DNA of 56,353 bases from a virus (taxonomy: Duplodnaviria > Caudoviricetes), in IMG/VR virus record IMGVR_UViG_3300046804_004565, positions 1 to 56,353 of that record; one strand, given 5' to 3'. Positions 11,142 to 56,353 of the stretch are shown here, piece after piece (positions within the stretch are counted from its first letter, which is position 1; every line of letters begins with the position of its first letter). The position numbers and the translations under genes are program-made. The notes below the pieces were generated by a model. That model had not been told where the DNA came from and made no database searches. It saw only the letters and a program-made list of their open reading frames with translations.

Positions 11142-11537
11142 TTATATCAACTTGTAGGTGATTTTTCCAGTTCCTTGATCAAGTGTTAGACCTGTTATTT
11201 TCGCCAAGTCGCTGTATTTTTCGCAATCCCAAGCGGTATCGCGTATATCACGAAGTTTTGCTCCGTTCTTTCCAGCGTCAAGTGTTTCATCCTTAAGATC
11301 AGCATTCTTTGGCAAATCTTCATCCTTGATTGGATTGATCACGAATGACACATTGTCTTTGGCGGTTATGACCCATCCATCAGACAGATTGAGGTCTTTG
11401 TATCTGTCGGTGTCTCTCAGATTTGCTATTGCCACTTCGAATCTTTTGCAAATCGCATCTCTTACGTTTTTTGGAATTTTGTTGTCCATATTAAATGGAG
11501 CCTTGTTCCAGTTGATTATTTGTGCGTCTATTTTCAT
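11142..11537 (-). CDS. Hypothetical protein
   Basis: 131-aa ORF. Confidence 0.65.
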   Translation of the reverse strand: MKIDAQIINWNKAPFNMDNKIPKNVRDAICKRFEVAIANLRDTDRYKDLNLSDGWVITAKDNVSFVINPIKDEDLPKNADLKDETLDAGKNGAKLRDIRDTAWDCEKYSDLAKITGLTLDQGTGKITYKLI

Positions 11538-11569
11538 AAATTTATATCAATTGATTGTTGTGGAATATT

Positions 11570-14500: not shown

Positions 14501-14887
14501 TCCATTTGTCTTTAGGAAATAACTCTGATAATATCCTGCACCGACTGCGATAATATCTCCCATTATAGGATTGGTCTCATTCACTATGCTTACAAACGAA
14601 TTTGCAGACGAGGCATATCTCCAACCAATGTCATTATTTCCATTTCCGGTCTTGACCCAAGTTTCGTTTGGTTTGGAGAATGATATATCACTTTCTTTCA
14701 AAGTAGGAAATCCGGCATCACTATAATGCGCTTGAACCAGCGACTTCTTCGAAATACTCAGTTCGCGCACACGACCATTATGAGAAACGTAGAATTTTTC
14801 TCCGTGTCTGATGAATCTTGCGCCTTTTGGGGCTTTCACGATGCCTTCTGGACTTGATCTGTCAAATTGTGCTGGTATATTGCTCAT
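11570..14887 (-). CDS. Paralog family member 2: RCC1/BLIP-II repeat and Asp-box-like (SxDGxxW) beta-propeller protein, likely virion fibre or adhesin
   Basis: Many LWGMGYNxxGQLG repeats in two blocks; STDGITW, SPDGDTW, SADGTNW, SANGIDW, STDGINW repeats; start set at MSNIPAQ. Confidence 0.85.
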   Translation of the reverse strand: MSNIPAQFDRSSPEGIVKAPKGARFIRHGEKFYVSHNGRVRELSISKKSLVQAHYSDAGFPTLKESDISFSKPNETWVKTGNGNNDIGWRYASSANSFVSIVNETNPIMGDIIAVGAGYYQSYFLKTNGDLWASGYNSDGELGNGTTDYRNTASLVLTDVKTVRASCEGWFASALKNDGTLWFAGYGYDGQFGNGTNDSYNDWTQNVLDGDITGSGAITDIAVGEYYTALLMADGTVWATGDAFNISTNVFMQITGSVKAIAGGGYHLLYINNSDVLFGIGENWDNQLGSEISPFYNWDEPFQIDTGVKAVGAGGYHSGYIKNDDTLWMMGGNWDGQIGINPDVEEHIHTPMQVDTNVRYITGGDSHTLYIKNDNTLWGMGYNGDGELGVYPWYDIYPATQIATDVSSVVAGNEHSLYVKTNKLLYGMGYNWFFQMGGPVYPFGMFSTNPLTGWTADGVTKFNYYDNQFDEHRWRGSVYGGGKFIVGGGEGNTQIRYSTDAKIWNTGSIDNVEGGISGVAYGAGKYVAVSGVSDGWNDGRPETFTSTDGITWTSGSLINTEWHELNAVVYGGGQFVAAGDRRIVTSPDGDTWTEQSTPANNYIRCLAYGDGKYVAGTWWGDYDINYEWYSYSQSFNNQTVDAFAAGRDHSLALKSGTLYGCGLNDYGQLGFGGYGDFGHYSKFLPITTNVKTVAAGYDHTTFVKNDGTLWGMGYNGFGQLGNGTFNSAFSPIQIDTNVSQSFGNEYGQNTLYIKNDNTLWGMGYNGSGQLGITSDSYVTQSVQVDTNVVSAAVGEEYSMYIKSDGTLYTIGQNNWGQLGDGTNNDSNTPISVDTSVRLCAAGGNTAFYVKNNGNLYGMGYNGHGQLGQGDTTARNTPTLIDTEVVSVSANNSSVVYVKEDGTAYGIGYNENGRLGTGDDTNHNTPTVSNITDAKQAHMASRASMIVKTDNTLWVVGYGDTGNLGLVSTAPKGVYSADGTNWSSSYMPDDWNAGIAYGNGIFVATGDQQTVITSANGIDWDYNYISTSSYFDPRGVIFDGTKFIVFADGSDNQMDIATSTDGINWTLGSTGTNSYWNTMVYGDGKYAIFADGWNNYVNPPYNLTIE

Positions 14888-14933
14888 AGGTTGTATAATG
14901 ATTATATTATAAATATAACCTATTAGATTAAAA

Positions 14934-16259
14934 TTATGGGTTCTTTCCAACTTGCCAGTATGTTTTTCCGTTAAAACTTATAGTTGCTTGGGAACCATAT
15001 GCCATACTATTTGCTGTTATATATGACCTTGATCCAGTAGCGGCATTCACAGTTCCTCCAGTATATGCGGATATTTTCAACAAGTTTGCTACTCTGTCTA
15101 TTCTGCACGCAAAGCCGGGCGATCCTTCTTCCGCACCGGCGAAGAATAGTCCAACCAGCTTCCAAATTCCTCCTATTTTGGCATATACTCCAGATCCAGA
15201 GTCTCCACCCAACCCAACTACGGTTCCATCACTTTCTATTGCCAAACAATCTGAAAATAAAACGGCATCATTTCCCGCATCAGTATATCCAGAAACATAA
15301 AGCGAAGTTGATGTATTCGTTATTTGGACGACGCAACTACTGTATGTATCCGGACCTATTGGTCCAGTAGTTCTTCCGGACTTGAATACTTCTGTGCTTG
15401 TGGTTATGGCGTCTATTTCAGCCGTGCTTGCAAATGGTGGCGGCGTTCCTCCAAACGTTGCTCCAATAACATCCCAACTTCCGCTATCTACGATGGCATT
15501 ACTGAGATTAACAATACCACAATCCACATAGTTTGATCCGGTGGATCTTAGTGGATATGCTCTTTTTGTTATTCCTATCAGATCGGTACTTTTATTTACT
15601 ACTCCGCTATCCCACGAACTTTGCTGATACATGTTTATATTGTTGTAAGCGGCGTAGGTAGCTGGAAAGTTGTAATCATCCGAAAAAAACTTGGATGTGG
15701 ATGGATTTGATCCACCAGGCGTAGCGCAAACGTGATTGTTTGTTAGTGCAACGAGTTTATTGTCGGTAGAATCCAATACCATAACTCCAAGAGTTCCTGC
15801 ATTTACATATCCAGTCGGAGGAGTTGCTGCCATAGATACTCCACCTCTTAATGGACGAGTGGTGGCACGATTCACGCTAACTGGCGCAGTCACATTGGGT
15901 GGAACAGAATCATCTCCCACAGGATTACACACGGACAAAGACAGCGGTCCACCGTTTGCAGCATTGTTTTCTCCCAACTTTCTCATCGTGGCTGATGTGT
16001 ATATTTTGGTTGGAACAACATAAACATCCGTGCTGTATTCAACGCCGTCAACATTTATCTTGGATGGTATTCTTTTTTCCTGCGGTATTTGATTCAAAGG
16101 AAGTTTTTTCTCGACTCCAAATCTGATGCACTTTTCTTCTGTATACTTTCCTTTGGAGTGCTTGCATCCATATGCAACCTGAACGGTGCCATATGCATTG
16201 TCAAGATGAAGATCTTCCACAACCTGTTTTAGTTTTTCCAGATTATTATTGTTATTCAT
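14934..16259 (-). CDS. Trypsin/chymotrypsin-fold serine protease (Nal1-like architecture)
   Basis: GTLG...LTNNHV (His), VDCG (Asp), KSGRTTG, GDSGS (Ser), VGLFFAG. Confidence 0.8.
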   Translation of the reverse strand: MNNNNNLEKLKQVVEDLHLDNAYGTVQVAYGCKHSKGKYTEEKCIRFGVEKKLPLNQIPQEKRIPSKINVDGVEYSTDVYVVPTKIYTSATMRKLGENNAANGGPLSLSVCNPVGDDSVPPNVTAPVSVNRATTRPLRGGVSMAATPPTGYVNAGTLGVMVLDSTDNKLVALTNNHVCATPGGSNPSTSKFFSDDYNFPATYAAYNNINMYQQSSWDSGVVNKSTDLIGITKRAYPLRSTGSNYVDCGIVNLSNAIVDSGSWDVIGATFGGTPPPFASTAEIDAITTSTEVFKSGRTTGPIGPDTYSSCVVQITNTSTSLYVSGYTDAGNDAVLFSDCLAIESDGTVVGLGGDSGSGVYAKIGGIWKLVGLFFAGAEEGSPGFACRIDRVANLLKISAYTGGTVNAATGSRSYITANSMAYGSQATISFNGKTYWQVGKNP

Positions 16260-22390: not shown

Positions 22391-24070
22391 TTAATTAAAT
22401 TCAGTTCCTATTGATACATCTCCATCATTTATGGTGTCGAGGGCTTGTAATTTTAATTTTACCTTCTCACACACCTCTTCTTCAACCGTGTTAGCCACGA
22501 AAACTATCTTTTGCAGGGATTTTGTTTTGCCACCATCTCTCCAAACTCTGCCCAGCGCCTGTCTTAGATCTACGGCAGATGGTGTGGGTGATATAAGTGC
22601 GATTCTTGGATAGTTTCCATTCAGATCGTGCAAACTAAGTCCGGCTCCTCCCGCCTTCACGTTCACTATAATAACTCTTTTTTTATCGGCTTGAAAGGCG
22701 GCAATATTGTCGTCGCGTTCACTTCCTTTGTTTTCGCCCCATACAACACAGTTTGTATCCAACCGCTTGCTTAATGCTCGCACGGATTCGCTGAAATTTA
22801 CGAATATGACCACGCTCATACCAGCTTCTATGGAATCTTCCGCCATTTCAACAAACAACGGTATTTTTATAAGTTCAGCTTGTTGTCTGGCTCGTAGCAT
22901 AATGGTCATTGCATTCAACTTATATTCTTTAGTATTTTTACAAACCGCCCTAAGATACGCCAACTCCTTGTCCATCTCTTCGTAGATATGCTTGAGTTCT
23001 TTCTCGGATTGTTCATCGATGTTATATGCCTCGGCAATAACTTCGCTGTCCGGAAATCCTTTGATATCCTCACGGCGTATTCTCACACCTCGTTCGAGAA
23101 AAAGGTCAGCGTGAAGTTTTCTTAATACATCCTTGCTACCATCAAACTCCCAACCAAATCTTCCTTTATCGCAACCGTGCTCTCGCAAAAATGTAGTCCA
23201 CTTACCATTCTTGTATACTCCTGTGATAAGACCAACTGTCTTTAGTTCGATTGGATTGATAGCATTGGTCGCGGAGCAGCATAGTATCTTATATCCCTGT
23301 TTGTGCGCGGCTATGGCGATTTCAGAGTTGATGGTACCGTGACCTTTGAGACGATGACTTTCGTCAAATATGATCAATGTGTTCTTATGGAGATTCCATT
23401 GAAAGAATTGGCGGTTGCTGGTGCGGCTAATTGGTTTCCATACACCAATCTCTTTATACTTCCCCGTCTTCACGGACTCGTAGTTCAATACGAATTCGGG
23501 CTTCATCCCAAAGTGATTAATTATGACTTTGTTCCAAGAGTATATGACTGCCTTGGGACATACCACGGCAATCTTCATACCAAGCTCTCTTGCTACAGCC
23601 ACGGCGGCATATGTCTTGCCAGCACCGGTATCACTGCCATCAAGCGCCGCTTTATGTTGCAGAATAGCTGCGCACAGCTTTGATACAACAGGAACCTGAA
23701 ACTCTCTTAGTCCGGTTATGTTTTTTACTTCGTAACTCTTCAGAGAACTTGTTGTAGGCACATCAATTTTCTTGGTGGCATTGTCTTTACCGAAGTCTTC
23801 TCTGAAGTCGGCTTTGTATGTCTGCCATTCATACAACGCCCATTGATTTAATTTATTCTTGCCTATGCTATATCCCTGCGCCTTGAGATTGATCTTGCTG
23901 TTATTCCAGAATACAAAAAATCCTTCAAGATAATCTTGAGGTATAACCCACCAGCGCATCCACTTAGGACCATATTTGGTGTTTACCTTGGCTGGCTCGG
24001 ACCAGTTTATGAATAACTTTTTATCAGTTCCCATGAACGTCTTTTGTTCGCTTGAATCTGTCAGCTTCAA
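22391..24070 (-). CDS. Superfamily 2 (SNF2-like) helicase/ATPase
   Basis: DTGAGKT, DESH, SAT, GGAGLSL, QALGRVWRDG. Confidence 0.9.
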   Translation of the reverse strand: MKLTDSSEQKTFMGTDKKLFINWSEPAKVNTKYGPKWMRWWVIPQDYLEGFFVFWNNSKINLKAQGYSIGKNKLNQWALYEWQTYKADFREDFGKDNATKKIDVPTTSSLKSYEVKNITGLREFQVPVVSKLCAAILQHKAALDGSDTGAGKTYAAVAVARELGMKIAVVCPKAVIYSWNKVIINHFGMKPEFVLNYESVKTGKYKEIGVWKPISRTSNRQFFQWNLHKNTLIIFDESHRLKGHGTINSEIAIAAHKQGYKILCCSATNAINPIELKTVGLITGVYKNGKWTTFLREHGCDKGRFGWEFDGSKDVLRKLHADLFLERGVRIRREDIKGFPDSEVIAEAYNIDEQSEKELKHIYEEMDKELAYLRAVCKNTKEYKLNAMTIMLRARQQAELIKIPLFVEMAEDSIEAGMSVVIFVNFSESVRALSKRLDTNCVVWGENKGSERDDNIAAFQADKKRVIIVNVKAGGAGLSLHDLNGNYPRIALISPTPSAVDLRQALGRVWRDGGKTKSLQKIVFVANTVEEEVCEKVKLKLQALDTINDGDVSIGTEFN

Positions 24071-37528: not shown

Positions 37529-38346
37529 AGTTTTTCCAGTATTTTATCCACCGCCTGATATGTGGTATATTTCTGCTTGAATCCGAGATAACGCAACTTC
37601 TCGCAGTCCATAAAGAAGTTTGGCGACTGGACTATTTGATGGAACTCAGGAGCGTCAACGTATGTTATCAAACTGGTCGAGTTTGTCTTTTTGACCACAT
37701 AATCCACAATATCGTTGATGCGGGTGCTTTCTTCGCCTCCGACATTGTATATTTCGTTCAACTTTCCCTTTGTCGTAATCAGATTGATGGCATCCGACAC
37801 ATCCTCCACGTGAAGAAAGTTGCGATAGTTATCGCCGTAATACAAGTTTATCGGTTCGTTCTTGGATATGTTGTTGATAAGATATTCAAGGGCATTCTTT
37901 TTCTTTCCTGCACCAACATCACCGCCGATTACATTGCACAACCTGATTATCCTATAGTTTTTCTTGTATGTTTTGCAATAAGACTCTACCAATGCCTCCG
38001 CCGCTCGCTTTGTGATGGAATAAAAACCTTTTGGATCACAATAATCATTCTCGTTGGCGGGATTATATTTGCCATATTTTCCACCATACACAAACCAAGA
38101 ACTCACAAAGTTGAACGTGCCCTTTACATTCGGCAATACATCCATCAACTTTTTCAGGTTGGTATCTATATCTTTGTGCAGATTATCGTGAACGTGATAG
38201 TTGTGAGTTGTGCTGATAAGATACAGCACATCTCCCATACCATCAACGCTATTGGCTTCTCTGGGAGCAATAACGCAATCAGGATATATTCTGGCAAAGT
38301 TGCTGCCAACAAAGCCAGTTCCACCAAATATGGTTAGTTTTGCCAT
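37525..38346 (-). CDS. NAD-dependent epimerase/dehydratase
   Basis: GGTGFVG, SSWFVYG, YSITK, RLCNVIG. Confidence 0.88.
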   Translation of the reverse strand: MAKLTIFGGTGFVGSNFARIYPDCVIAPREANSVDGMGDVLYLISTTHNYHVHDNLHKDIDTNLKKLMDVLPNVKGTFNFVSSWFVYGGKYGKYNPANENDYCDPKGFYSITKRAAEALVESYCKTYKKNYRIIRLCNVIGGDVGAGKKKNALEYLINNISKNEPINLYYGDNYRNFLHVEDVSDAINLITTKGKLNEIYNVGGEESTRINDIVDYVVKKTNSTSLITYVDAPEFHQIVQSPNFFMDCEKLRYLGFKQKYTTYQAVDKILEKL

Positions 38347-39644
38347 GTTGATAATACTTCTTCGATATGATTCAGATTATCTTGTGATATGGTAGGCGCG
38401 CACCCAACAAAGAATACCAGATCAAGAACCTTGTTGGACTCTGGATACTTCTTGTAGTCGTCGAGGTGTTTGTATCCTTTGTGGACCAACAAGTTTCCAG
38501 CAAAGTAGTTTCTGGTTTGCACACCGTTCTTTTCGAGGAAAGATACAAGCTTTTCCTTCTGCTGCTTGCTTTCGCATATAATAGGCACGCCGAATGGAAC
38601 CCAATCCGTTTCAATAAAGGTATTTGGAAAAGCCAGCCCATTTACATACTTTTTCAAAGATGTTTGGATGGCATCCTTGTTTGATTGGCGGGTCTTGCAG
38701 ATATATTCAAGCTTCTTCAACTGTTCCATACCAATCGCCGCTTGTAAATCAAGTGGCTTTAGATTCCAGCCGATGCGATTGAATACATACTTGTGGTCGA
38801 TGATCAGTTCAGGAAACTCTGGTAGCCAGTTGGAGAATCTGCGGTTGCAGGAACCGTTGCACAATAGATTGGCAACACCAACGCAATAACAATCTCTGCC
38901 CCACGTTCCAAAGCTTCTGGCAATATCAACGATCTCTTGAACGTCGGAGGATACCATACCACCTTCCAGCGTTGTAATCTCGTGAGCAGGATAGAAAGAG
39001 CAGCTTGATGCAATAGCATACTCGTTAAGATACTTACCTCTCCATTTTGATCCAAGAGAGTCGCAGTTATCCAAGATCAGTTTCAGGTCGTGTTTCTTTG
39101 TGAGAGCAAGCATCTCGTCCATATCAGGAGGATTGCCCAGCACTGGACTGAGAAATACCGCTTTGGTTCTTTCATTGATCTTTTCTTCGATCTTCACAAG
39201 ATCAAAGTTCAACGTTGACCATTCGATGTCGATGAATACCGGCGTTAAGTTATTGTGAACAATAGCCGAAACCGTTGTCGGAAACCCGACAGCCGACACA
39301 ATGATTTCATCTCCGTCTTTCCATCCGAAATATTCTTTGCACGCAGCAATCAACAGCAAATTGGCGCTTGATCCGCTATTACAGAAGAAAGAGAACTTGT
39401 TGTTGATATGCTTGCCAAACTCGCGCTCGAATCGTGCACAAGTTTCTCCCGAAGAAGACCATTTGCCAAAAAGAAATGTTTCTATCGCCGCCACAAGCTC
39501 ACTCTTGTCAAAGTAAGCGCCGGAATAGTATATCTTCTTCTTGTCTTTCGCCACAAGATTGTGGGCAAACTTGGGGATAAATCCGTATTTCTCGGACATA
39601 TTATCCACGAACTTTGAAATATCTTCGCGTTGGTTGTTATCCAT
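38334..39644 (-). CDS. rfbH: RfbH/DdhC-like NDP-4-keto-6-deoxyglucose 3-dehydratase (DegT/DnrJ fold)
   Basis: NSGSSANLL, DNCDSLG, SFYPAH (His in place of the Schiff-base Lys), WGRDCYC...C...HKY Fe-S ligands, FAGNL. Confidence 0.85.
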   Translation of the reverse strand: MDNNQREDISKFVDNMSEKYGFIPKFAHNLVAKDKKKIYYSGAYFDKSELVAAIETFLFGKWSSSGETCARFEREFGKHINNKFSFFCNSGSSANLLLIAACKEYFGWKDGDEIIVSAVGFPTTVSAIVHNNLTPVFIDIEWSTLNFDLVKIEEKINERTKAVFLSPVLGNPPDMDEMLALTKKHDLKLILDNCDSLGSKWRGKYLNEYAIASSCSFYPAHEITTLEGGMVSSDVQEIVDIARSFGTWGRDCYCVGVANLLCNGSCNRRFSNWLPEFPELIIDHKYVFNRIGWNLKPLDLQAAIGMEQLKKLEYICKTRQSNKDAIQTSLKKYVNGLAFPNTFIETDWVPFGVPIICESKQQKEKLVSFLEKNGVQTRNYFAGNLLVHKGYKHLDDYKKYPESNKVLDLVFFVGCAPTISQDNLNHIEEVLSTWQN

Positions 39645-43531: not shown

Positions 43532-44215
43532 TTATCCCTGTCCCATATTTGCTTCTCTTGACCAGTTTTGATTATAAAACTTGTTCTGAGAAACCTGTCT
43601 TTGGATTGTTTTATCGTGGATGATTGCCCATTCAACTTCTTTTGGAAGAGTTGCCACCGTCACCGCACCCACAATTGTCTCGTGCAATGGCTTTTGCCAT
43701 TGAATTTTAAGACTGTTCTTGTATATGCGAGACTGATAATCGCCGTGATTCCAGTTTACTATTGGCAAGTCACCGAAATGTTCACGTATAGTTCCCAGAT
43801 GCCATCCCCACATAGCGGCATCTTGTGGGGTGGCTCCTCTTACGATGTTGACTCTGGGAACTCTATATAACTCCACCGTCTGGTTTGATCTGAGCAACTC
43901 TTGCATATTTTGCAACAGTTCAGAAGACAAGTATTCATCCGCATCCAATTGCACGATATAGTCACCAACGCAGCGTTTGCTGCCATAGTTCTTGTGCTCG
44001 GCAAAATTCTTGTTCAATGCGTGTTGAACCACGGTAAATCCATAGCTCCTCGCATTGGCAAGTATTTTCTTTGTCTCCTCGTTGTCCGAGAAGTCATCAA
44101 GGATGACAACTTCATCATTCGGAGAATGTGATTCAATATGATCCTTGAGCTTGGAGATCAGAACTCCAAGCTCATCGGTCTCGTTATGGCAGGTTACAAG
44201 ATAACTGATTTTCAC
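43532..44215 (-). CDS. Glycosyltransferase family 2
   Basis: TCHNE, DDFSD, FAEHKN, LDADE, LHE. Confidence 0.85.
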   Translation of the reverse strand: MKISYLVTCHNETDELGVLISKLKDHIESHSPNDEVVILDDFSDNEETKKILANARSYGFTVVQHALNKNFAEHKNYGSKRCVGDYIVQLDADEYLSSELLQNMQELLRSNQTVELYRVPRVNIVRGATPQDAAMWGWHLGTIREHFGDLPIVNWNHGDYQSRIYKNSLKIQWQKPLHETIVGAVTVATLPKEVEWAIIHDKTIQRQVSQNKFYNQNWSREANMGQG

Positions 44216-45510
44216 GAGGAAACTGGTTCAATTTTCTTGAATTTTGGTAATGTGATGGCGACCTTCTTTTCAAACACAGGTAGATGCTTGTCGAGAACTT
44301 CGACCAACTTCTTGGCGGCTTCGTCCAGATTGAACTTCTGCGAATTTTGTGTGCGCAGCTTCTCGGCGTTGGGAACATAGTTGATATAGTTGTTATACAT
44401 ATCTTCCAGCTTCTGAGCAGCGATGCTGTAATTGGCATTGAACCACTGGCCTTCCTTCACCAACCAATCGTTGCAAGCGCTCGGAGGTATATTCACCAAT
44501 GTGCCTGGCAGAAGATTTGATATGTCTTCTGGCAAGAAATCAACGTGACCACTCCATCCTGTTGTAAGCAGAGGCTTGCCGCTCAGAGTTGATTCCAATA
44601 ATGGACGACCAAATCCCTCACCGTGTGTCAAGCTGACATTAACTTTCACCTTTGGATGATTATACAGACGATTCAGTTCTTCCGGAGTCAATTCTCCGTG
44701 GATAACATATACGTTTGGAAGATTGCCGGATATATTGACTCGAATGTCGTGAATCTTTTTCAATATTTCGGCTTTGTCGATTTTTGAGAAGGTGGCGCCG
44801 CTGGTCTTTAAGATCAATGCTGGCGGGTTCTTCTTGTTTTTGAATACTTCACTGAATATCTTCACAAGCATTCCTACATCCTTGCGATCTGCACCCAGTT
44901 CTCCTTGAATCCAGTGACCAACAAACAGATAGCAGAAGTTTTCCGGAATAGCTTCCAATGCCCTGTCAATTTCCGGAGAAGGTTCGGAAGTTTTCCTGTA
45001 TACCGATGTGTCAATTCCCTCGAATATCACTTCAATAGGTTTGTTGACTTGTATCTTTTCAACTGCACCGGTCTTTTCGTCCTTGCGATCATATGCCACC
45101 TTTGCCAATACATCTCTGGAGAAGACGGAGGGAACAATCGTGAGATTCATTCTATTGACACCTTCTACCCATTCTGGCTTTGGAACGGTGCTTTCAATAC
45201 CGGCTGTCACGCCAATATTGAATTTTCCACGGGGCTGGAACTCATTTGGAATGGATACCTGAATAAATAGTTCAGGTTGTGCCGTAAGGTTTGCTGTAAG
45301 AATTCTGCTCTTGATTTCCTTGACCATAGGACGACTTTCGTCATCAAGCATTGTGTTAGGACAAACGCCCCAACGCATAGGAACAATCTTAACGTCAAAC
45401 TTGTCCCACTTGATGATATCTGCCGCGATTGCAAAGCAATGGTCTCCATATCCGCTGCGAGAAGCAATCGGACCTTGGATTACACATACTGGTTTGATTT
45501 CGTTGCTCAT
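44212..45510 (-). CDS. GT-B (GT4) glycosyltransferase
   Basis: SGYG, RKDVG, GEGFGRPLLE, WSGHVDF. Confidence 0.85.
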   Translation of the reverse strand: MSNEIKPVCVIQGPIASRSGYGDHCFAIAADIIKWDKFDVKIVPMRWGVCPNTMLDDESRPMVKEIKSRILTANLTAQPELFIQVSIPNEFQPRGKFNIGVTAGIESTVPKPEWVEGVNRMNLTIVPSVFSRDVLAKVAYDRKDEKTGAVEKIQVNKPIEVIFEGIDTSVYRKTSEPSPEIDRALEAIPENFCYLFVGHWIQGELGADRKDVGMLVKIFSEVFKNKKNPPALILKTSGATFSKIDKAEILKKIHDIRVNISGNLPNVYVIHGELTPEELNRLYNHPKVKVNVSLTHGEGFGRPLLESTLSGKPLLTTGWSGHVDFLPEDISNLLPGTLVNIPPSACNDWLVKEGQWFNANYSIAAQKLEDMYNNYINYVPNAEKLRTQNSQKFNLDEAAKKLVEVLDKHLPVFEKKVAITLPKFKKIEPVSS

Positions 45511-45530
45511 TTATATAACCTTTGTTTTTA

Positions 45531-45881
45531 TTATGGGTTTGTGCCAGCAGTGTTTTGATCATCCTGCTCCGCGAACACGGCGAAGATTTGACTGGTGACA
45601 TCACCGATCTCGTCCTTGTATTCCTGACCCTTGGCTTTCTTTTCCTTGGCGATTTCTATGCGCTTCTCTGTGGCTTCATATACTCTGCCCTTGGCAGCAT
45701 CATCGCTGATCGCCTTTTGCTTTTGTTTTTCGTATGTGGCTTCGATTTCGTTCTTGAGTTCCTTGTCCTCGTCGGAATAACTCTTCATCTCTGCCTTCTT
45801 GTCCTTTTCAAGCTCGAATAATCTCTTGGTGAGATCATAGATTTTGTCTTTTGCCTCGTCGGTTGATAATTTTTTAGCCAT
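45531..45881 (-). CDS. Coiled-coil protein with internal tandem duplication
   Basis: AKDKIYDLT...KDKKA...Y.DE and AKGRVYEAT...KEKKA...YKDE. Confidence 0.65.
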   Translation of the reverse strand: MAKKLSTDEAKDKIYDLTKRLFELEKDKKAEMKSYSDEDKELKNEIEATYEKQKQKAISDDAAKGRVYEATEKRIEIAKEKKAKGQEYKDEIGDVTSQIFAVFAEQDDQNTAGTNP

Positions 45882-45886
45882 AAGTT

Positions 45887-47365
45887 TTATTGATTGAATT
45901 TTGTTAGCACCGCTTCCTTGTCGATTTTTGGCATCGGGAACCCAACTGAATTCGTGAACATAGTATGCCCAACGTATTCATCGTGGCGATGGATATTGAA
46001 ACGCTCTCTGCCTTTCCAATTTGACATCATACCATCCAAACCATCAGCCATCTTTTCGCACATACTCTCGGCGCTCAGTTCTCCTGCGCCAAGCATCCAC
46101 TCTCTTCCCAGCAAGCCATACTCTTCACGCTTTTCCTTGCCGATGAGATACCAATACATGAATGCTTCGGCACAGTCTTCCCAGCGAGCATAATCCGCGA
46201 GGATGTATGGAGTAGGAATGCTGCCTTGCATCATGCGTGCGCCTGGAAATATTGGTGTAACCCACTTTCCGTGCTTCTTGTATCTACCATCCGCATTTGT
46301 TCCCCAACTGTTGTCAAATTCGTATTTGTTTCCATTGTCGTCGGTGAATCCACATTGATCCTGCAATCCACCTGTAACGGTAACCACAATTGGTGTTCCT
46401 GCCATAACGCTCTCGGCGGTTCCAAGACCAAATCCTTCGTTGTCGGAAAGATTTACTGTGATGTCAGCGATGTTATATAGCTGATTCATCTTGTCCGGCA
46501 ATACTTTGTCGGTGCTGAATACAACGTCATAGTTTGGACAATATGCCTGTTTGCAGGCTGGTAGATCCGTGCCGTTCTCGTCCACAGGATTTGTGTGCAA
46601 GAAGAACACGCACTTTTCAGCTTCTTCTTTTGGAAGATTGTCGCAGAATGCTCTGTATGCCAGCAGGATGGTGCTGGTTTGCTTGCGGCGAATGTTGCGA
46701 TTGTTATAAAAAATAACAAACTTATAATCCTTCTTGAAGTATTGCTTGCGAATAAGTGCAAGTTCACTCTTTTCCGGATCTGTTGTGAGAGGACGGAAAG
46801 TCTTGCCATTGATTCCGTGAGGAACATATGTGACTGTGGTTGGCTTGTTCAATGCATTACCGAGTACGCTTTCAACAATGTTCTTGGTCTGCTTGCTGAT
46901 GCAGCCAATCCAATCGCAGCTTTCATAAAATGCACGATTGTACATTGGGTAAGGAAGATCGTCCCAGATACTATAAAAACCGATAGGTAGCTTCTGGCGA
47001 AGCTCTCGCTCGATTTGGTAGAGCCAGCCCCAGAAACGTGGATCAGTAAAATGGAGCAGCGCATCAGGCTTCTCCATCTTGATAACTTCGTTCAGGATAT
47101 TGGCATCGCCATAACCATCCACCGGATAAAGGCGAACATATGAATCCGTTAGACCAGTAGCCTGATTGGTGGCTTGATCAAGATTCATAATCTTGCCCTT
47201 TTCGGGATGGGTGACGCTACCAGCGATCTGAACCCAGTTGTATTTGCCAGCCAGACCCATCACAAACTCTCTTGCCATCGTGGCAATACCAGAATGCATT
47301 CTTAGGTCGTCGCACAGCAGGATAATCTTCTTTCTGTCCTTTTGAGGAATATAACCAGTTGCCAT
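45887..47365 (-). CDS. GT-B (GT4) glycosyltransferase
   Basis: SGIA, VPHG, RNIRRKQ, NEGFGL..AE, TGGLQDQ. Confidence 0.87.
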   Translation of the reverse strand: MATGYIPQKDRKKIILLCDDLRMHSGIATMAREFVMGLAGKYNWVQIAGSVTHPEKGKIMNLDQATNQATGLTDSYVRLYPVDGYGDANILNEVIKMEKPDALLHFTDPRFWGWLYQIERELRQKLPIGFYSIWDDLPYPMYNRAFYESCDWIGCISKQTKNIVESVLGNALNKPTTVTYVPHGINGKTFRPLTTDPEKSELALIRKQYFKKDYKFVIFYNNRNIRRKQTSTILLAYRAFCDNLPKEEAEKCVFFLHTNPVDENGTDLPACKQAYCPNYDVVFSTDKVLPDKMNQLYNIADITVNLSDNEGFGLGTAESVMAGTPIVVTVTGGLQDQCGFTDDNGNKYEFDNSWGTNADGRYKKHGKWVTPIFPGARMMQGSIPTPYILADYARWEDCAEAFMYWYLIGKEKREEYGLLGREWMLGAGELSAESMCEKMADGLDGMMSNWKGRERFNIHRHDEYVGHTMFTNSVGFPMPKIDKEAVLTKFNQ

Positions 47366-51648: not shown

Positions 51649-52308
51649 TCAAGACGCGAGCATTCCTCTCACTTCGGTCACATTATCCAAGAAGTGAATC
51701 CAGCTTGGATGATGTGCGATTTGAATTGTGGAACTGACCGGTATCGGAGGCGGGGCTTTTGGCTTACGAATAAGTTTAAGACCTGCCTGATCTGGCGTCT
51801 TGTCTGCTTTTTTGCTATTGATATCTTTGTGGCACCACACCATATTTTCAAAGGTGTTTCTACCACCCTTGGTGCGCGGAATAACGTGGTCTATATTACC
51901 TTCCTTCCAGCTTAGTGCCTTACCTGTATACTGGCATATACCACCGTCGCGTTTGCGGATGCTTTCCTTGGTAGGACGAGGTGTGATAAGAGGCATCTTG
52001 CTGTAATTTGGCTGGATTATGACACGTGGCGCACGAATTGTCATATTCGATGTGCGGATAGCAAGGTCATAATCCCTGATAGGCAACTTCTTCCAAGTAT
52101 CCCAATCAACAGGCTGAACATACTCGGGATTATCCCAATCCACATTACCATTTTCATCAACCGCAAAATTCATATCTATGGCAAGAGCGGCTGGATTATT
52201 TCCATCCGATCCACCAAGCATAGCAATCAGCGCTTCCTTAACTGTCTTTGTGTTAAGAGCTTGCCATAAGCCGTTTAGGCATAAAACTGGTTGATTGACT
52301 ACATTCAT
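51649..52308 (-). CDS. HNH endonuclease (McrA-like)
   Basis: VLCLN, IRKRD..CQYTG, IDHVIPRTKGG, N....H..N..K.DKTP. Confidence 0.85.
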   Translation of the reverse strand: MNVVNQPVLCLNGLWQALNTKTVKEALIAMLGGSDGNNPAALAIDMNFAVDENGNVDWDNPEYVQPVDWDTWKKLPIRDYDLAIRTSNMTIRAPRVIIQPNYSKMPLITPRPTKESIRKRDGGICQYTGKALSWKEGNIDHVIPRTKGGRNTFENMVWCHKDINSKKADKTPDQAGLKLIRKPKAPPPIPVSSTIQIAHHPSWIHFLDNVTEVRGMLAS

Positions 52309-52577: not shown

Positions 52578-52769
52578 TCAATATTTTGTGGCAAGGTGCC
52601 AATAACCGCAATAGGTGCATTTGTAAGGTGTTCTATCCGAACGATATTCCATACGTATTCTTTTTGCATCACGAAGAGCATCACTGCGAGACACATAGTT
52701 TGTTTTAGTCTCACAGGATGCTTTGTGATGATTATTTGAGGACTTGGTATAAGATTTTCGTATAGTCAT
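52578..52769 (-). CDS. Small zinc-finger protein
   Basis: YKCTYCGYWHL. Confidence 0.6.
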   Translation of the reverse strand: MTIRKSYTKSSNNHHKASCETKTNYVSRSDALRDAKRIRMEYRSDRTPYKCTYCGYWHLATKY

Positions 52770-53844
52770 CTTTTCCTACGGGCTTGCCGTCAAGTATTTT
52801 GAATATTATGGCTGCTCTGCCTGTGCTTCCATATGCTTGCAGAATTTCCGCAGCGGCATTTTTACGAGGCATTTTTACACGAGCAGATGCGAACTCAAAT
52901 AATGCACCCATTATCTTATGCACTTCTTTCATAGCATCACAGATACGCGAGGCATGTCCAGTTGCCATTGTAGCAATCTCAAAGTCAAACTTTTCAGTAA
53001 GATACTCAAAGAATTCTGGATAGCCTGTTGGCTCATGTGATAATGTATGACGAGGCAGAAACCAATCAATGTAAACATCAATGATTTTGTCTATGCTTGA
53101 TACTTCCGACTTAAGCCTATGAAGCATGAGATAATGTGCAGACTTTATCTTTAGAATATATTGCTCATTGTTGTAATATAAGCAGATACCTTCCTTATCG
53201 CGCATATCTGCCACAGCCTTCTTCATATCTTCTATGCTGTCATATGAATATGTCTGTGGACGACGAAGTTCCATATTTTCCGCCAAAATGTTCAATGAAA
53301 CCTGCGATACGAGGTCATAATTATCGTGGTATATCACACCAATTAGAGCCATATCCGGTTCATTGCCGTAATCAAGCACGATGCGATTGGTGGGAGTCAT
53401 CCATTCAAAGATGTATGACTCCGAGTTCTGCACAGAGTCCAAGAAAGCCTTGAACTTCGGATACTTGTTAAGTAAAAAGTCAACTTCATTTCCGTTTGGT
53501 TGTGTGCGCACATCAACTGTTCCGCGAGTACGTACAACGAGATGTCCCTTATACTTTGAGAATATAAGTGTAGAACCATCAAGCTTTTCCATCAACTTAG
53601 AATTTTTCAAAGAAGCTGGGGTGGGAAACAAGTCCGGCTTCTCATCAAGGTTAAAAAACTTCTTGAATGATAATGATACAGGATTGCCTTCCGCATCCCA
53701 TAAAGAAGAACGAAATATAAGATTGTCCTTGTTCCACGCAGTCCCAAACGGCACAGGCTGAACAAGAAAACAATCGTATTCACCAACCTTGTGCTGGTGA
53801 ACCATAAAATTGGTTCGATCTATGGACTGGATGTCTATTTTCAC
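52732..53844 (-). CDS. RNA ligase 1 family (T4 RnlA-like)
   Basis: FKKFFN, EKLDGS (motif I), RTRG, FEW...NRIV, EGI, LKIKS..Y. Confidence 0.85.
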   Translation of the reverse strand: MKIDIQSIDRTNFMVHQHKVGEYDCFLVQPVPFGTAWNKDNLIFRSSLWDAEGNPVSLSFKKFFNLDEKPDLFPTPASLKNSKLMEKLDGSTLIFSKYKGHLVVRTRGTVDVRTQPNGNEVDFLLNKYPKFKAFLDSVQNSESYIFEWMTPTNRIVLDYGNEPDMALIGVIYHDNYDLVSQVSLNILAENMELRRPQTYSYDSIEDMKKAVADMRDKEGICLYYNNEQYILKIKSAHYLMLHRLKSEVSSIDKIIDVYIDWFLPRHTLSHEPTGYPEFFEYLTEKFDFEIATMATGHASRICDAMKEVHKIMGALFEFASARVKMPRKNAAAEILQAYGSTGRAAIIFKILDGKPVGKDDYTKILYQVLK

Positions 53845-54205: not shown

Positions 54206-55156
54206 TTATCCCACGATTGTCAATACCTTTTCGCGAGAAATCTTGTTAATTGCGATTTCTTTTAGTTTGAATTCGAAGTCAAGATGTAGCGGATCTTTGT
54301 GGTTCGCATAAATAGCAGGAAGCATCGTGGGAAAATCGGCGTGAGCACGCGGATTCTTGCCAGCCAGAGACTCGCTGAAATGGAACAACGGAACAACATC
54401 TTTCGGCCAAGTATTGAGGGCAAGATGGAATGCGTGTGAATCGGATTCCCCGCCACTATTACAGAGATGGTGAAGATTGTCAAAAGTAATGGGAATACCG
54501 GCACGCCTATAAACATGATTGTACAAGTTCACTACTGTCCAACTTCTCGGCTTGTCCTCGTTTTCAAGCACAAGACGGCTGCGAACAGACTCACTCATCA
54601 GTTGATATGATTCCAAGAATCTAATAGCGGCTTCGTCAAAGTTGCCATCATTCCAACAGTTCATATGGATGTTGATTGGTGCCTCATATGAACGAGGAAG
54701 ATCAAGCATATCCATGATCATAGCGTGTTGTTCCAAGTCTCTGATGGAATTCTTGCGAGTATTTGGATTGGGACTGGCGGGAACAACAAACTGGTCTGGA
54801 TGCATACTGCATCTGATACCATATGCTTTTATAGTGGCCGATGCGTCGTAAAACTCTGCAATAATCTCATCTGCATTATAGAAATCATTCACACCGAACT
54901 TGAGATCGGGATGTGTCATCAATGGGAACACATTGCTGCCAATACGATAGTTCCAGCCTTCCTTTCCACATTCTTTAAGAATAGCGTGGATAGTTCTGAT
55001 ATTGTTCAGCGAACGGTCAGCAAGAACCTTCATCGCCTCCTTCTTACCCAATTTCTTGTATTGGGCATATGTCATTACATTGAACTTGATCTTCTGCTCC
55101 TGCAATCCTGTATGGATGCAGCACAAAGATGGAGTAATATTAGATGGTAAAATCAT
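54206..55156 (-). CDS. uvsE: UV damage endonuclease
   Basis: YRIGS, SMHPDQF, INIH, RLVLENED, PITFDNLHH, FHFSE, HAD, EFKLKE; start set at MILPS. Confidence 0.9.
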   Translation of the reverse strand: MILPSNITPSLCCIHTGLQEQKIKFNVMTYAQYKKLGKKEAMKVLADRSLNNIRTIHAILKECGKEGWNYRIGSNVFPLMTHPDLKFGVNDFYNADEIIAEFYDASATIKAYGIRCSMHPDQFVVPASPNPNTRKNSIRDLEQHAMIMDMLDLPRSYEAPINIHMNCWNDGNFDEAAIRFLESYQLMSESVRSRLVLENEDKPRSWTVVNLYNHVYRRAGIPITFDNLHHLCNSGGESDSHAFHLALNTWPKDVVPLFHFSESLAGKNPRAHADFPTMLPAIYANHKDPLHLDFEFKLKEIAINKISREKVLTIVG

Positions 55157-55163
55157 AAAATAC

Positions 55164-55191
55164 ATTATGCACTATTTTGATAGTTTGTCAA
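55164..55191 (-). promoter_or_regulatory. Promoter TTGACA-N16-CATAAT, -10 box 7 nt from ATG
   Basis: Near-consensus boxes. Confidence 0.65.
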
Positions 55192-55251: not shown

Positions 55252-55995
55252 TCAGAACTTTACGCTCAAACCACCGGAGACACCGTTGATGGTGTTACCA
55301 GCAGTGAATAGACTGTCACGGCGTTGGTAAACATCGGCGGAAACTGTGGCTCCCTTGATGTATGTAGCAACTCCGAGACCAGCAATGACGTACTGCTTGC
55401 TGTCTTTGAACGCGGCGATTGTGGCTGCGGTAGGATCATTGAATCCATATCCAAGAGCAGGAACGAGCTTCAGGCTATTGAAACCAAATGGCAATCTGAC
55501 ATTGGCTTGTAGATTGTTGGTGTGGTTCTTTAGATCGGCACGAGCCAATACATCCCAAGTGAACTTGGTGTTCTTTACACCACCGCTCAACTTAGCAAAT
55601 GGTTCTACGCTGCTGGCGTATCCATTGCTTTGGGCTGTCTTTGAAAATGTGTGGTATGTACCACCAAAAGTCAAATCAGCAAGGGGGGACGTGAACTTGT
55701 ATCCAATGTTTGTATCAATGCGCTTGAACAAGCCAGCGGCAGCAGTACTTGATACCGTGGTCTTTCCTACGGTAGTTACTGTCGTCTTGTCTTGCAAGGT
55801 ATTGAACGTTGTTACGCCAAGGACGAAGCCAGAAGCTTCCAATTCGGCACCAGCGATGAGAACGTTCTCAAAAACCAATGTACCCTTGTCGATATAGTTG
55901 GTTAGATACTTCGCATCAGCCGTAACGCCAACAGCGGCGTTTAGTGTAACAGCGGCAAACAATGCCGTAATTAGTGCTAGTAGTTTCTTTGTCAT
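55252..55995 (-). CDS. Outer-membrane beta-barrel protein (porin-like)
   Basis: Sec signal MTKKLLALITALFAAVTLNA; alternating amphipathic strands; C-terminal GLSVKF (beta-signal Phe). Confidence 0.75.
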   Translation of the reverse strand: MTKKLLALITALFAAVTLNAAVGVTADAKYLTNYIDKGTLVFENVLIAGAELEASGFVLGVTTFNTLQDKTTVTTVGKTTVSSTAAAGLFKRIDTNIGYKFTSPLADLTFGGTYHTFSKTAQSNGYASSVEPFAKLSGGVKNTKFTWDVLARADLKNHTNNLQANVRLPFGFNSLKLVPALGYGFNDPTAATIAAFKDSKQYVIAGLGVATYIKGATVSADVYQRRDSLFTAGNTINGVSGGLSVKF

Positions 55996-56048: not shown

Positions 56049-56076
56049 ACTATACGCTTGCGGCTCGTTTCGTCAA
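56049..56076 (-). promoter_or_regulatory. Promoter TTGACG-N16-TATAGT for the OMP gene
   Basis: Near-consensus boxes. Confidence 0.65.
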
Positions 56077-56139
56077 GAAAATTTTTGAACGTATATATTA
56101 CAAAAATGATAAATTTTATATCAGAAATAGTTTCTTGTC

Positions 56140-56198
56140 GGAATACTCTTGGCGTTACTCAATTGCAACCAACGTGAAGGTGGTATTCCCCTGCAATC
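56140..56198 (-). ncRNA. Minimal HDV-like (theta-type) self-cleaving ribozyme
   Basis: GAUUGCA-GG-GGAAUACC-ACC-UUCACGUU-GGU-UGCAAUU-GA-GUAAC-GCCAA-GAGUAUUCC. P1 7 bp with G1.U wobble; P3 ACC/GGU; L3 UUCACGUU; P1.1 UC/GA; vestigial P4; J4/2 G-C-C-A-A with catalytic C; P2 GGAAUAC/GUAUUCC. Confidence 0.88.
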
Positions 56199-56353
56199 TG
56201 TAGCCGGGGAGAGTCGAACTCCCGTGCTATATAATATACATACAAACATATACAAGCTTATCTCTTATAATCCGACAATGTTTGGTAGAGCACCACATTG
56301 AAGTTGAGAGTTCTGTATTGACTCGCTGTTATTACCGACTCTCTGCCTTATAA
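56199..56353 (-). ncRNA. ssrA: tmRNA, 3' portion (5' end and tag ORF outside the window)
   Basis: T-arm GGGAG-UUCGACU-CUCCC, acceptor strand CGGCUAC, discriminator A, U70 for the G3.U70 Ala identity pair; no anticodon arm upstream; UAAGCUUGUA at the position of tmRNA UAAGCAUGUA; pk4-like pseudoknot (CAAUGU/ACAUUG, loop CUCU pairing with AGAG). Confidence 0.8.

Follow-up and report, generated by a model that had tools for sequence, protein, structure and literature searches.

The right end of the window, i.e. the whole 56,353-nt stretch of phage DNA analysed here, carries on its minus strand the 3' part of a tmRNA gene (56199..56353, about 155 nt), which runs to the contig edge and was recognised by Rfam model RF00023 and by homology to L004, a related locus with a full-length tmRNA. 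Direct reading showed that the minus-strand string quoted in the first-pass annotation is the exact sequence of the window. Within this part, all on the minus strand, lie a T-arm (GGGAG/TTCGACT/CTCCC, 56207..56223), the same in a second relative, L022; an acceptor 3' strand CGGCUAC (56200..56206), delimited from the sequence and from comparison with L022, with U70 at 56202; and a discriminator A73 (56199), which the sequence and the ARAGORN ends of homologues predict to be the last templated base of the tmRNA, and after which no CCA is encoded. In family alignment A2, the T-stem was paired at 100%, with both-sided changes at 3/5 pairs. RF00023 gave a 5'-truncated match (56353..56196, model positions 186-374, E 4.3e-9), whose 26.8 bits fall short of the gathering score (47), since the gene is cut at the contig end; for the same reason, as expected, ARAGORN called no gene over the window. 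About 236 nt of the tmRNA, among them the acceptor 5' strand and the tag frame, thus lie off the contig. The window is 94% identical to the L004 tmRNA over 125 nt, and the relatives' tmRNAs, in which the 5' acceptor strand, the resume codon and the tag frame are present, score above the gathering threshold (85-124 bits; 89 bits for L004 and 85.1 bits for the full L022 tmRNA). The model match and the homology to L004 and L022 therefore uphold the earlier reading of this region as a tmRNA with a T-arm, an Ala-type acceptor, A73 and no CCA. A GUGGCCG-like acceptor 5' strand had also been predicted: that of L022 is indeed GTGGCCG, the window's own being off the contig, and if the latter is alike, the window tmRNA would carry the alanine identity pair G3.U70.

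The window tmRNA is a mosaic. Its body resembles that of L004, while the T-arm and acceptor resemble those of L022, the 25-nt stretch made of T-arm, acceptor strand and discriminator being identical in the window and L022. Given this combination, the acceptor stem may be mismatched. A second contig with the exact window variant was not found by searches with a junction 27-mer, a pattern and an L022 18-mer: the exact 27-mer spanning the junction occurred in 0 viral contigs, and the 18-mer from the L022 5' end matched L022's own contig alone, so that the window 5' half was not recovered by these searches. Contigs from sequencing runs extend beyond the right end of the window.

Directly behind the discriminator, on the same strand, 59 nt (56140..56198) are interpreted, from their fold and from family covariation (alignment A5, see below), as a minimal HDV-like (theta-type) ribozyme, with predicted scission 5' of G 56198. 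Helix P1 (7 bp) is formed by GAUUGCA (56192..56198) and UGCAAUU (56161..56167) and is closed by a G1.U wobble, G 56198 lying opposite U 56161. Helix P2 (7 bp) is formed by GGAAUAC (56183..56189) and GUAUUCC (56140..56146). The 3-bp P3 (56168..56181) pairs ACC 56181..56179 with GGU 56170..56168 and encloses L3, UUCACGUU (56178..56171), two bases of which form the 2-bp P1.1, U 56177 with A 56159 and C 56176 with G 56160. Positions 56147..56160 hold J1/4 GA (the 3' side of P1.1), a vestigial P4 GUAAC and J4/2 GCCAAGA, the latter with a candidate catalytic C at 56152 (C47 of the alignment, invariant). The canonical nested double-pseudoknot order of P1, P2, P3 and P1.1 is found in the window, and these helices all pair within 59 nt as the first-pass annotation had it. 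As for the "reduced P4" that it described, this is indeed very small, but amounts at best to a single G-C pair around UAA.

Taken alone, the window sequence is less telling. Comparison with HDV-family models, proposed in the first-pass annotation, came out negative: no Rfam HDV family matched the element at gathering score, or even at E up to 10. Such models presuppose a P4, and for RF02682 the lack of a match is explained by the reduction of P4 to GUAAC; in another such phage, a relative that does possess a P4, located behind a tRNA-Ala-like gene, gave a weak RF02682 match (22.9 bits, E 0.018). A structure-only descriptor (7-bp P1, 3-bp P3, P2 of at least 6 bp, correct topology) matched 7 distinct sites in the window, whereas 40 sequences simulated with a first-order Markov model had 1.15 on average; as six of these are sites other than the element, base pairing in the window alone is not convincingly above chance. 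The nested MFE fold of the element was not unusual (z -1.26), which is expected, since the method is blind to pseudoknots. In our assessment, the decisive evidence is comparative: seeded homologues start one base after the discriminator of a tmRNA or tRNA, and they covary.

With a fixed-core pattern, 10/10 viral and 14/14 metagenome matches abutted a tmRNA-type 3' end, and ARAGORN called a tmRNA upstream of 9/10 and 13/14, respectively, both misses being loci cut short. A relaxed pattern retrieved 22 viral stretches, of which 20 were real: a tmRNA preceded 15 of them and a tRNA 4 (3 Ala, 1 Pro), leaving 1 without an assigned partner. The gap between the CCA-less tmRNA discriminator and the ribozyme core was zero in 15 of these 20 matches, and the sister copies stood 0-1 nt behind tRNA-Ala or tRNA-Pro. 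For all homologous CCA-less tmRNAs, ARAGORN placed the 3' end at the discriminator, one base ahead of the ribozyme; the cleavage site predicted in the window likewise lies 0 nt from the tRNA-like end. The architecture is thus not unique to the window: no fewer than 14 distinct sequences were found at the tmRNA-ribozyme junction, and 15 viral loci had a complete tmRNA with the ribozyme. The +1 base was A, not G, in 7/14 distinct tmRNA-associated junctions, and the opposite base was always U. With our model R1, each phage fragment had a single strong copy, located at the tmRNA in all cases. Two weak R1 matches, G002:35568 (13.6 bits) and G003:39331 (11.6 bits), were unconvincing. A 14-mer of the core occurred in at least 111 stretches; among the matches listed, 4 were real and the others were chance matches in coding DNA. 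The exact pattern gave no ribozyme copy in species-representative prokaryote genomes; a Thioclava scaffold match among prokaryote genome contigs had no P1 pairing and 14.8 bits with R1, and was set aside as chance. Positions 56100-56353 had no blastn match in the cultured-phage collection.

Covariation was evaluated in alignment A5, composed of 14 sequences of the ribozyme family. In this alignment, 94.7% of cells were paired, vs 26-40% with the partners slid, and P1 cells were paired at 100%. Both sides changed at 14/19 pairs, and 0/500 shuffles attained the observed score. All four helices contributed: both-sided changes affected 6/7 pairs of P1, 6/7 of P2, 1/3 of P3 and 1/2 of P1.1; two pairs of P3 and one of P1.1 had been fixed by the search patterns and are hence uninformative for covariation. 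The outer P3 pair was A-U in 11 sequences and G-C in 3, and a P1.1 pair was U-A in 10 and C-G in 4. G46, C47 (56152), A50 and A52 were invariant in 14/14 sequences, and the window copy kept all 21 invariant positions of A5. The family J4/2, GCYRAGA, agrees with the RF02682 consensus GCUAAGA.

Close relatives of the window tmRNA indicate how this arrangement may have arisen. Among 30 related loci, 20 have a full tmRNA, called by ARAGORN, ahead of the same neighbouring gene, and Rfam added L022; all 21 of these ribozyme-less tmRNAs encode CCA, and R1 had 0 matches on the 30 loci. By contrast, CCA was absent from all 14 distinct junctions with a ribozyme. Relative to the CCA-type relatives (alignment A1), the window holds a cassette of about 90 nt exactly at the A73|C74 boundary. 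Besides the ribozyme, this cassette includes a spacer with a weak AGAAA/UUUCU hairpin (56110..56139, minus strand), the first ~25 nt of which resemble L152, L160, L085 and L153 in a blastn extension past the ribozyme. It is followed in A1 by tCA (56107..56109, minus strand), which may be what is left of an earlier CCA, and then by a T-run, as after CCA in the relatives. CCA and ribozyme alleles occur together in one freshwater sample, and the runs containing window DNA are labelled freshwater. Both cassette junctions are spanned by a 158-nt Logan unitig present without differences in runs X1 and X2; the window may itself derive from this sample. The assembly graph branches at the locus, with many co-occurring strain variants. 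Matches in RNA runs X15 and X16 were pieces of relatives' tmRNAs alone and did not cover the ribozyme site.

Further downstream, a sigma-70-like promoter (TTGACG, 16-nt spacer, TATAGT; 56049..56076, minus strand), conserved in the ribozyme-less relatives, precedes an ORF of 247 aa without family match (55252..55995, minus strand). No consensus terminator was found between the tmRNA and this promoter. The window genes are all co-directional and read well in the standard genetic code, as had been supposed; the genes downstream of the tmRNA and ribozyme differ between phage groups. PolyA_pol (CCA-adding enzyme), SmpB and AAA_33, a family which we take to cover the T4 Pnkp kinase, had no match in five phage fragments that are just 12-34% complete; given this incompleteness, the absence carries no information. 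RNA_lig_T4_1 was present in the window alone among the phage fragments searched; as a ribozyme-specific partner it was discarded, since in relatives it also lies beside CCA-type tmRNAs.

Taken together, the locus is likely to be a phage tmRNA gene in which a 59-nt HDV-like self-cleaving ribozyme replaces CCA and cuts at A73, thereby maturing the tmRNA for trans-translation. Transcription would continue from the tmRNA into the ribozyme, which would fold as a nested double pseudoknot (P1, P2, P3 and P1.1, with almost no P4). We infer that C 56152 in J4/2 is the catalytic residue; it would act as general acid, like HDV C75. The predicted scission separates A 56199 from G 56198, a site supported by its coincidence with the zero-gap junction of the homologues. 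The cleaved tmRNA would end at A73 and bear a 2',3'-cyclic phosphate, and the ribozyme fragment would start with a 5'-OH. CCA can be added to a 2',3'-cyclic phosphate end only after healing. This would fall to a phosphoesterase, of host or phage origin, and a CCA-adding enzyme would then complete the tmRNA end. If the 5' half beyond the contig edge is intact, the host AlaRS would charge the tmRNA via G3.U70, for trans-translation with SmpB.

Other explanations were weighed against this scenario. The element could be a structured, non-catalytic RNA that merely resembles the HDV fold and serves, for instance, as a signal for processing, as a site for protein binding or in place of a terminator. 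The missing Rfam HDV match, the near absence of P4 and the +1 A in place of the canonical G in half of the distinct tmRNA-associated copies are in line with this, and some element defining the 3' end is indeed needed, as no consensus terminator precedes the next promoter. However, P1 and P2, which are mutually pseudoknotted, covary together with P3 and P1.1; the invariant GC..A.A of J4/2 fits the drz-Fpra consensus; a start exactly one base past the discriminator fits a ribozyme cutting 5' of its own first base; and ribozyme activity has been proven for close analogues located behind tRNAs, according to the main text of the theta study (PMC10879173). We consider a non-catalytic RNA improbable.

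That CCA is lost in every ribozyme-bearing copy and kept in every ribozyme-less one links the element with the end of the tmRNA and not with the downstream gene. This mutual exclusion speaks against an active ribozyme whose main role lies downstream, as an insulator or as the source of a structured leader with a 5'-OH, host nucleases finishing the tmRNA end. The next gene, moreover, has a promoter-like site of its own, kept where the ribozyme is lacking, and downstream genes vary among phage groups. Such a role appears very improbable, even though the genes are co-directional, no terminator-like site follows the tmRNA and about 25 nt past the ribozyme are also conserved in some family members. 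The window copy itself might be dead or chimeric, through recombination, an assembly artefact or decay into a non-functional tmRNA remnant: the contig stops inside the gene, an L004-like body is joined to an L022-like 3' end, and strain variants branch the assembly graph at this point. It is nevertheless highly improbable that this accounts for the locus, considering that the separate Logan unitig, possibly from the source sample, spans both junctions unchanged, that 21/21 invariant positions are retained, and that complete tmRNAs share the architecture in 15 viral loci.

A self-processing tmRNA thus being the preferred reading, we lean slightly towards a broader one, in which the element belongs to a ribozyme lineage specialised on Ala-type ends (tmRNA, tRNA-Ala) in uncultured, mostly large phages. 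This lineage would travel as a mobile cassette of about 85-90 nt that replaces CCA, would free tmRNA maturation from host 3' nucleases while making it dependent on end-healing, would tolerate A+1 in half of its members, and would account for some of the "isolated" theta ribozymes described at a distance from ORFs. As judged from sequence, this is a known kind of element, an HDV-like/theta ribozyme, on a new partner, the phage tmRNA, and it recurs in many uncultured phages. If true, it would be the first natural ribosome-rescue RNA found, in the literature searched, to make its own 3' end, and ribozyme 3' processing would extend from tRNAs to tmRNA and from gut to freshwater-labelled phage DNA. 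Some theta ribozymes, left unassigned through detection with tRNAscan-SE only, would also gain a concrete function. Near-identical tmRNAs with either CCA or a ribozyme, even in one sample, constitute a natural paired experiment on the swap, and the identity of the enzyme that takes off the 2',3'-cyclic phosphate ahead of CCA addition becomes a testable question. The +1 A variants should be of interest to HDV-ribozyme enzymology. For annotation, ARAGORN and Rfam place the tmRNA ends correctly, while the ribozyme itself goes unflagged.

Theta ribozymes have been described as minimal HDV-like ribozymes at phage tRNA 3' ends (Kienbeck et al. 2024, PMC10879173), and, as the main text of that study reports, in vitro cleavage by the tRNA-associated ones depends on Mg2+ and on the C (PMC10879173). 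Judged on this verbal description, the element resembles them in its length (about 56-60 nt), in having almost no P4, in a predicted cut site abutting a CCA-less discriminator and in its occurrence on Caudoviricetes-like contigs; the window's ribozyme family is also found behind tRNA-Ala and tRNA-Pro. It differs from them in that the upstream RNA is a tmRNA, not a tRNA, and in that the window lies in freshwater-labelled runs and reads well in the standard code, whereas the published set is more than 80% gut phages, with many cases tied to suppressor tRNAs and recoding (PMC10879173). In that study, partners were found with tRNAscan-SE only, the criterion being a cleavage site within +/-5 nt of the tRNA 3' end, and 526 matches were classed as "non-tRNA-associated" (PMC10879173). 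As tRNAscan-SE, used alone, is blind to tmRNAs, tmRNA cases would fall among these 526. The word "tmRNA" has 0 occurrences in the main text of PMC10879173, and likewise in the preprint; full-text literature searches found no description of a tmRNA-coupled HDV-like ribozyme, although the theta data file of isolated ribozymes may list such sequences. With drz-Fpra of F. prausnitzii (RF02682), the element shares the nested double pseudoknot with a 7-bp P1 and a 3-bp P3, the ..CACC-U.C.CG.U-GGU.. core and a J4/2 close to GCUAAGA; it differs in its P4, here GUAAC, and in its P1.1, here G-C and A-U instead of two G-C pairs. As regards tmRNAs, the tmRNA database paper mentions a CCA position "not always encoding CCA" (PMC11915505), and the word "ribozyme" has no occurrence in that paper. 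Like other one-piece tmRNAs (RF00023), the present family has a tRNA-Ala-like domain, helix 2 and pseudoknots, and the relatives' tag frames end in ...LAAA, ...AVA or ...VAA; it differs in that its 3' end would be set by a predicted cis ribozyme, and not by an encoded CCA and host nucleases.

The minus strand at the right end of the window reads as the first-pass annotation had quoted it: a T-arm (GGGAG/TTCGACT/CTCCC, 56223..56207), an acceptor 3' strand (CGGCTAC, 56206..56200) and a discriminator A (56199) with no CCA after it, followed by a 59-nt stretch showing the HDV-like helix order, from G 56198 to C 56140. In the ARAGORN and Rfam check that it had proposed, at a permissive threshold for Rfam, the tmRNA family RF00023 matched 56353..56196 with 5' truncation (model positions 186-374, 26.8 bits, E 4.3e-9), but ARAGORN made no call across the window, no family reached its Rfam gathering score there, and with the E cutoff raised to 10 the HDV-family models still gave nothing in the 86 nt spanning the element. 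In the numbering of the related viral locus L004, tmRNA positions ~237-391 are present, and the 5' acceptor strand and tag frame fall past the contig end. Of the tmRNA body, 130 nt are visible, with 94% identity over 125 nt to L004, whose full tmRNA scores 89 bits in Rfam. In another relative, L022, the 25 nt of T-arm, acceptor strand and discriminator are identical to those of the window, and the 5' strand, GTGGCCG, is as had been predicted, giving G1-C72, U2-A71 and G3.U70. The relatives' tmRNAs encode tags such as AKRNLAKTSFLSVRKNTGAEMLAAA. By homology, the left part of the locus can thus be assigned to a tmRNA.

The absence of CCA was clearly not shared by the closest relatives. Among 30 related viral loci, fetched using the UvdE-like endonuclease gene as a handle, ARAGORN called a complete tmRNA upstream of this gene in 20; the remaining ten were six loci with too little upstream sequence, three 38%-identity relatives without a call, and L022, whose tmRNA was missed by ARAGORN and found by Rfam (85.1 bits). 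All 20 called tmRNAs, and that of L022, encode CCA, with a T-run after it and no ribozyme, and R1, a covariance model of the ribozyme family, found no copy in the 30 loci. When the 354-nt end of the window was compared with the relatives by blastn, two blocks aligned, the tmRNA and the promoter region downstream of it, and the interval between them did not. In line with this, the alignment of window and relatives (A1) shows an insert of ~90 nt in the window that starts exactly after the discriminator and is followed by tCA and the same T-run that stands after CCA in the relatives. In two DNA sequencing runs from one freshwater-labelled sample (X1 and X2), possibly the source of the window, a 158-nt unitig covers 56071-56228 with 0 differences, and other contigs, identical over 56199-56276, diverge at 56199 into alleles with CCA and a T-run; at one contig joint, 113 bases are skipped and 22 other letters stand instead. 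By blastn, the tmRNA body of the window resembles none of the other ribozyme-bearing tmRNA bodies, whereas the ribozymes are 80-92% identical between the window and these tmRNAs, so that the history of the ribozyme differs from that of its tmRNA. From these sequence comparisons, the ribozyme appears to be a cassette substituting for CCA.

Summed contig depth in X1 peaked at window 56252-56300, about five- to tenfold above the flanks, and the variant contigs there are many. Many co-occurring phage strains share this part of the tmRNA, which probably accounts for the contig break here.

The arrangement is recurrent and mobile, rather than one-off. Scanning for the 14-base P3-L3-P3 core gave at least 111 stretches, and the full ribozyme was present in four among the matches listed, all behind a tmRNA. 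With a specific fixed-core pattern, 10 viral stretches were found, each immediately preceded by a T-arm and acceptor of tmRNA type (10/10), nine with an ARAGORN tmRNA call and the tenth in a locus cut 180 nt upstream; the 14 stretches in metagenome contigs all followed a tmRNA-type end, 13 with ARAGORN calls and one in a cut locus (the two sets overlap, at least three contigs being the same to judge by their equal lengths). A relaxed pattern gave 22 viral stretches, of which 20 were real and two were chance matches within coding DNA. The partners of the real copies are 15 tmRNAs, three tRNA-Ala(UGC) (L168, L175 and L178), one tRNA-Pro(UGG) (L173) and one unclassified T-arm-like end. In all cases, base 1 of the ribozyme comes right after the discriminator, or lies at most one base from the tRNA end given by ARAGORN, and CCA is encoded in none of the 14 distinct tmRNA-ribozyme junction sequences. 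Five phage fragments each had one strong R1 match, at the tmRNA. A pattern scan of 185,579 species-representative prokaryote genomes gave a single match, a chance one, and the cultured-phage collection gave none by blastn.

In L173, where the ribozyme follows tRNA-Pro, the tmRNA of the same locus (11169-11554, minus strand) has CCA and no ribozyme, and its tag (AEDNVISYDFSYDDV...) almost matches the tag of L153, which has the ribozyme at its tmRNA; judging by sequence, L173 and L153 add a second presence/absence pair to that of the window and L022. Ala-type acceptor ends precede 18 of the 20 real copies (15 tmRNA, 3 tRNA-Ala). A ribozyme sub-lineage seems to be tied to ...UCCA ends, perhaps as the result of recombination where T-arms and acceptors are similar.

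The unclassified case, L176:2109-2193 (+), is a family ribozyme after a T-arm-like end (...GGAGGTTCGAATCCTCT CTCCCCT G) for which no tRNA or tmRNA was called by ARAGORN, or by Rfam at its gathering score. ARAGORN also misses the tmRNAs at L022:1327-1707 and L174:1077-1457 (-), both above the Rfam threshold (85.1 and 50.3 bits, the latter confirming the L174 tmRNA); a U2-A71 acceptor pair is present in one and a TGCAACT T-loop in the other. Counts of phage tmRNAs made with ARAGORN only will run low.

Pairing alone is weak evidence for the fold. The nested MFE of the element is unremarkable, and a loose structure-only descriptor matched 7 sites in the window vs about 1.15 in Markov simulations; other sites of this kind (minus strand 27578, 24600 and 2127; plus strand 52727 and 54659) are taken for chance matches. 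The comparative evidence for the predicted fold is strong. In A5, a gapless alignment of 14 distinct ribozymes (10 behind tmRNAs, 3 behind tRNA-Ala, 1 unknown), standard pairs occupy 94.7% of cells vs 26-40% with partners slid 1-3 columns, and both sides change in 14/19 pairs. None of 500 shuffles matched the observed covariation score, a count rather than a probability, since the sequences are few and related. Both-side changes affect 6/7 pairs of P1 (paired in 100% of cells), 6/7 of P2 (85.7%), 1/3 of P3 (outer pair A-U in 11, G-C in 3) and 1/2 of P1.1 (U-A in 10, C-G in 4). Two of the P3 pairs and one of P1.1 were preset by the search patterns and are uninformative. As P1 and P2 cross, the fold that they specify together is a double pseudoknot rather than a hairpin. 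Invariant bases of the element are G46, C47, A50 and A52, and its 7-nt J4/2, GCYRAGA, matches the consensus of RF02682 (GCUAAGA), the Rfam HDV ribozyme from F. prausnitzii. The catalytic C is described as the first position of J4/2 in theta ribozymes (PMC10879173); by analogy, the candidate here is C 56152, provided that the G before it is assigned to the vestigial P4.

Variation was also seen at +1, where A instead of G, paired with an invariant U, occurs in 7/14 distinct tmRNA-associated ribozymes of the family alignments A2 and A5 (L085, L097, L150, L152, L153, L159 and L160); all four tRNA-associated copies and L176 have G. A different HDV-like element, with a P4, immediately follows a tRNA-Ala(UGC)-like gene at L163:302-448 (-), or about 23101-23247 of G004:C1, in a phage fragment that also has a tmRNA with ribozyme. 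It matches RF02682 weakly (22.9 bits, E 0.018), with G1.U, P1.1 GG/CC and a 7-bp P4; the tRNA-like gene has an odd T-loop, scores 32 bits with RF00005 and is missed by ARAGORN.

The window covers all of an IMG/VR virus record (56,353 bases), classed as linear and with an estimated completeness of 18%, and is therefore a fragment of a large phage; a 1126-aa RCC1-like-repeat protein, two glycosyltransferases and an aminotransferase (regions 11570-14950, 44212-47365 and 38334-39644, minus strand), with this completeness, fit a jumbo-phage fragment. All its long ORFs are on the minus strand and read uninterrupted in table 11, in agreement with the standard code proposed for this phage. Just downstream of the tmRNA lies the neighbouring UvdE-like UV endonuclease gene (319 aa, 54206-55165, minus strand), then, 2.3 kb downstream of the tmRNA, a T4 Rnl1-type RNA ligase (PF09511, 47 bits; 52732-53844, minus strand), and an HNH endonuclease at 51649-52308. 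The neighbourhood of the ligase is the same in relatives with CCA-type tmRNAs. The ribozyme might instead serve mainly in mRNA processing; a promoter-like site that belongs to the next gene downstream, and that relatives without the ribozyme conserve, argues against such a role.

Sequence, homology, junction, covariation and CCA exclusion are direct observations; from a mechanistic point of view, self-cleavage in Mg2+ has been published for tRNA-theta pairs and is abolished by changing the C of J4/2 to U (PMC10879173). The tmRNA precursor would likewise be cut between 56199 and 56198, leaving A73 with a 2',3'-cyclic phosphate. Host or phage enzymes would then heal this end and add CCA, and alanylation would follow. 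An HD domain with 2',3'-cyclic phosphodiesterase activity is present in some bacterial CCA-adding enzymes, and T4 Pnkp heals 2',3'-cyclic phosphate ends. Neither a CCA-adding enzyme nor a Pnkp-type healing enzyme was found in the phage fragments searched, which are too incomplete to judge by.

The first-pass annotation had placed a ribozyme against a tmRNA discriminator, and the junction, CCA exclusion and covariation in homologues confirm this observation; homology, recurrence and covariation also support its interpretation as a tmRNA with an HDV-like ribozyme. Theta ribozymes behind phage tRNAs have been published (PMC10879173); the main text and preprint of that work contain no mention of tmRNA, transfer-messenger, ssrA or trans-translation, and partners are described there as detected by tRNAscan-SE only. 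It reports 526 matches as "non-tRNA-associated", mostly non-coding and >200 nt from an ORF, exactly the pattern that a ~390-nt tmRNA gene would give. Full-text searches gave no paper in which an HDV-like or self-cleaving ribozyme is tied to a tmRNA 3' end; the supplements of the theta paper could list the present sequences among its isolated theta ribozymes. The CCA position of tmRNA genes does not always encode CCA, according to the tmRNA database paper (PMC11915505). On comparative grounds, the element is best placed among the theta-type HDV-like ribozymes, its new context being a putative self-processing tmRNA. Its family differs from the theta ribozymes as described in PMC10879173 in its partners, here tmRNA and tRNA-Ala and there mostly Met, suppressor and Leu tRNAs; the runs that contain the window are freshwater-labelled, and >80% of the matches in that work are in gut phages.
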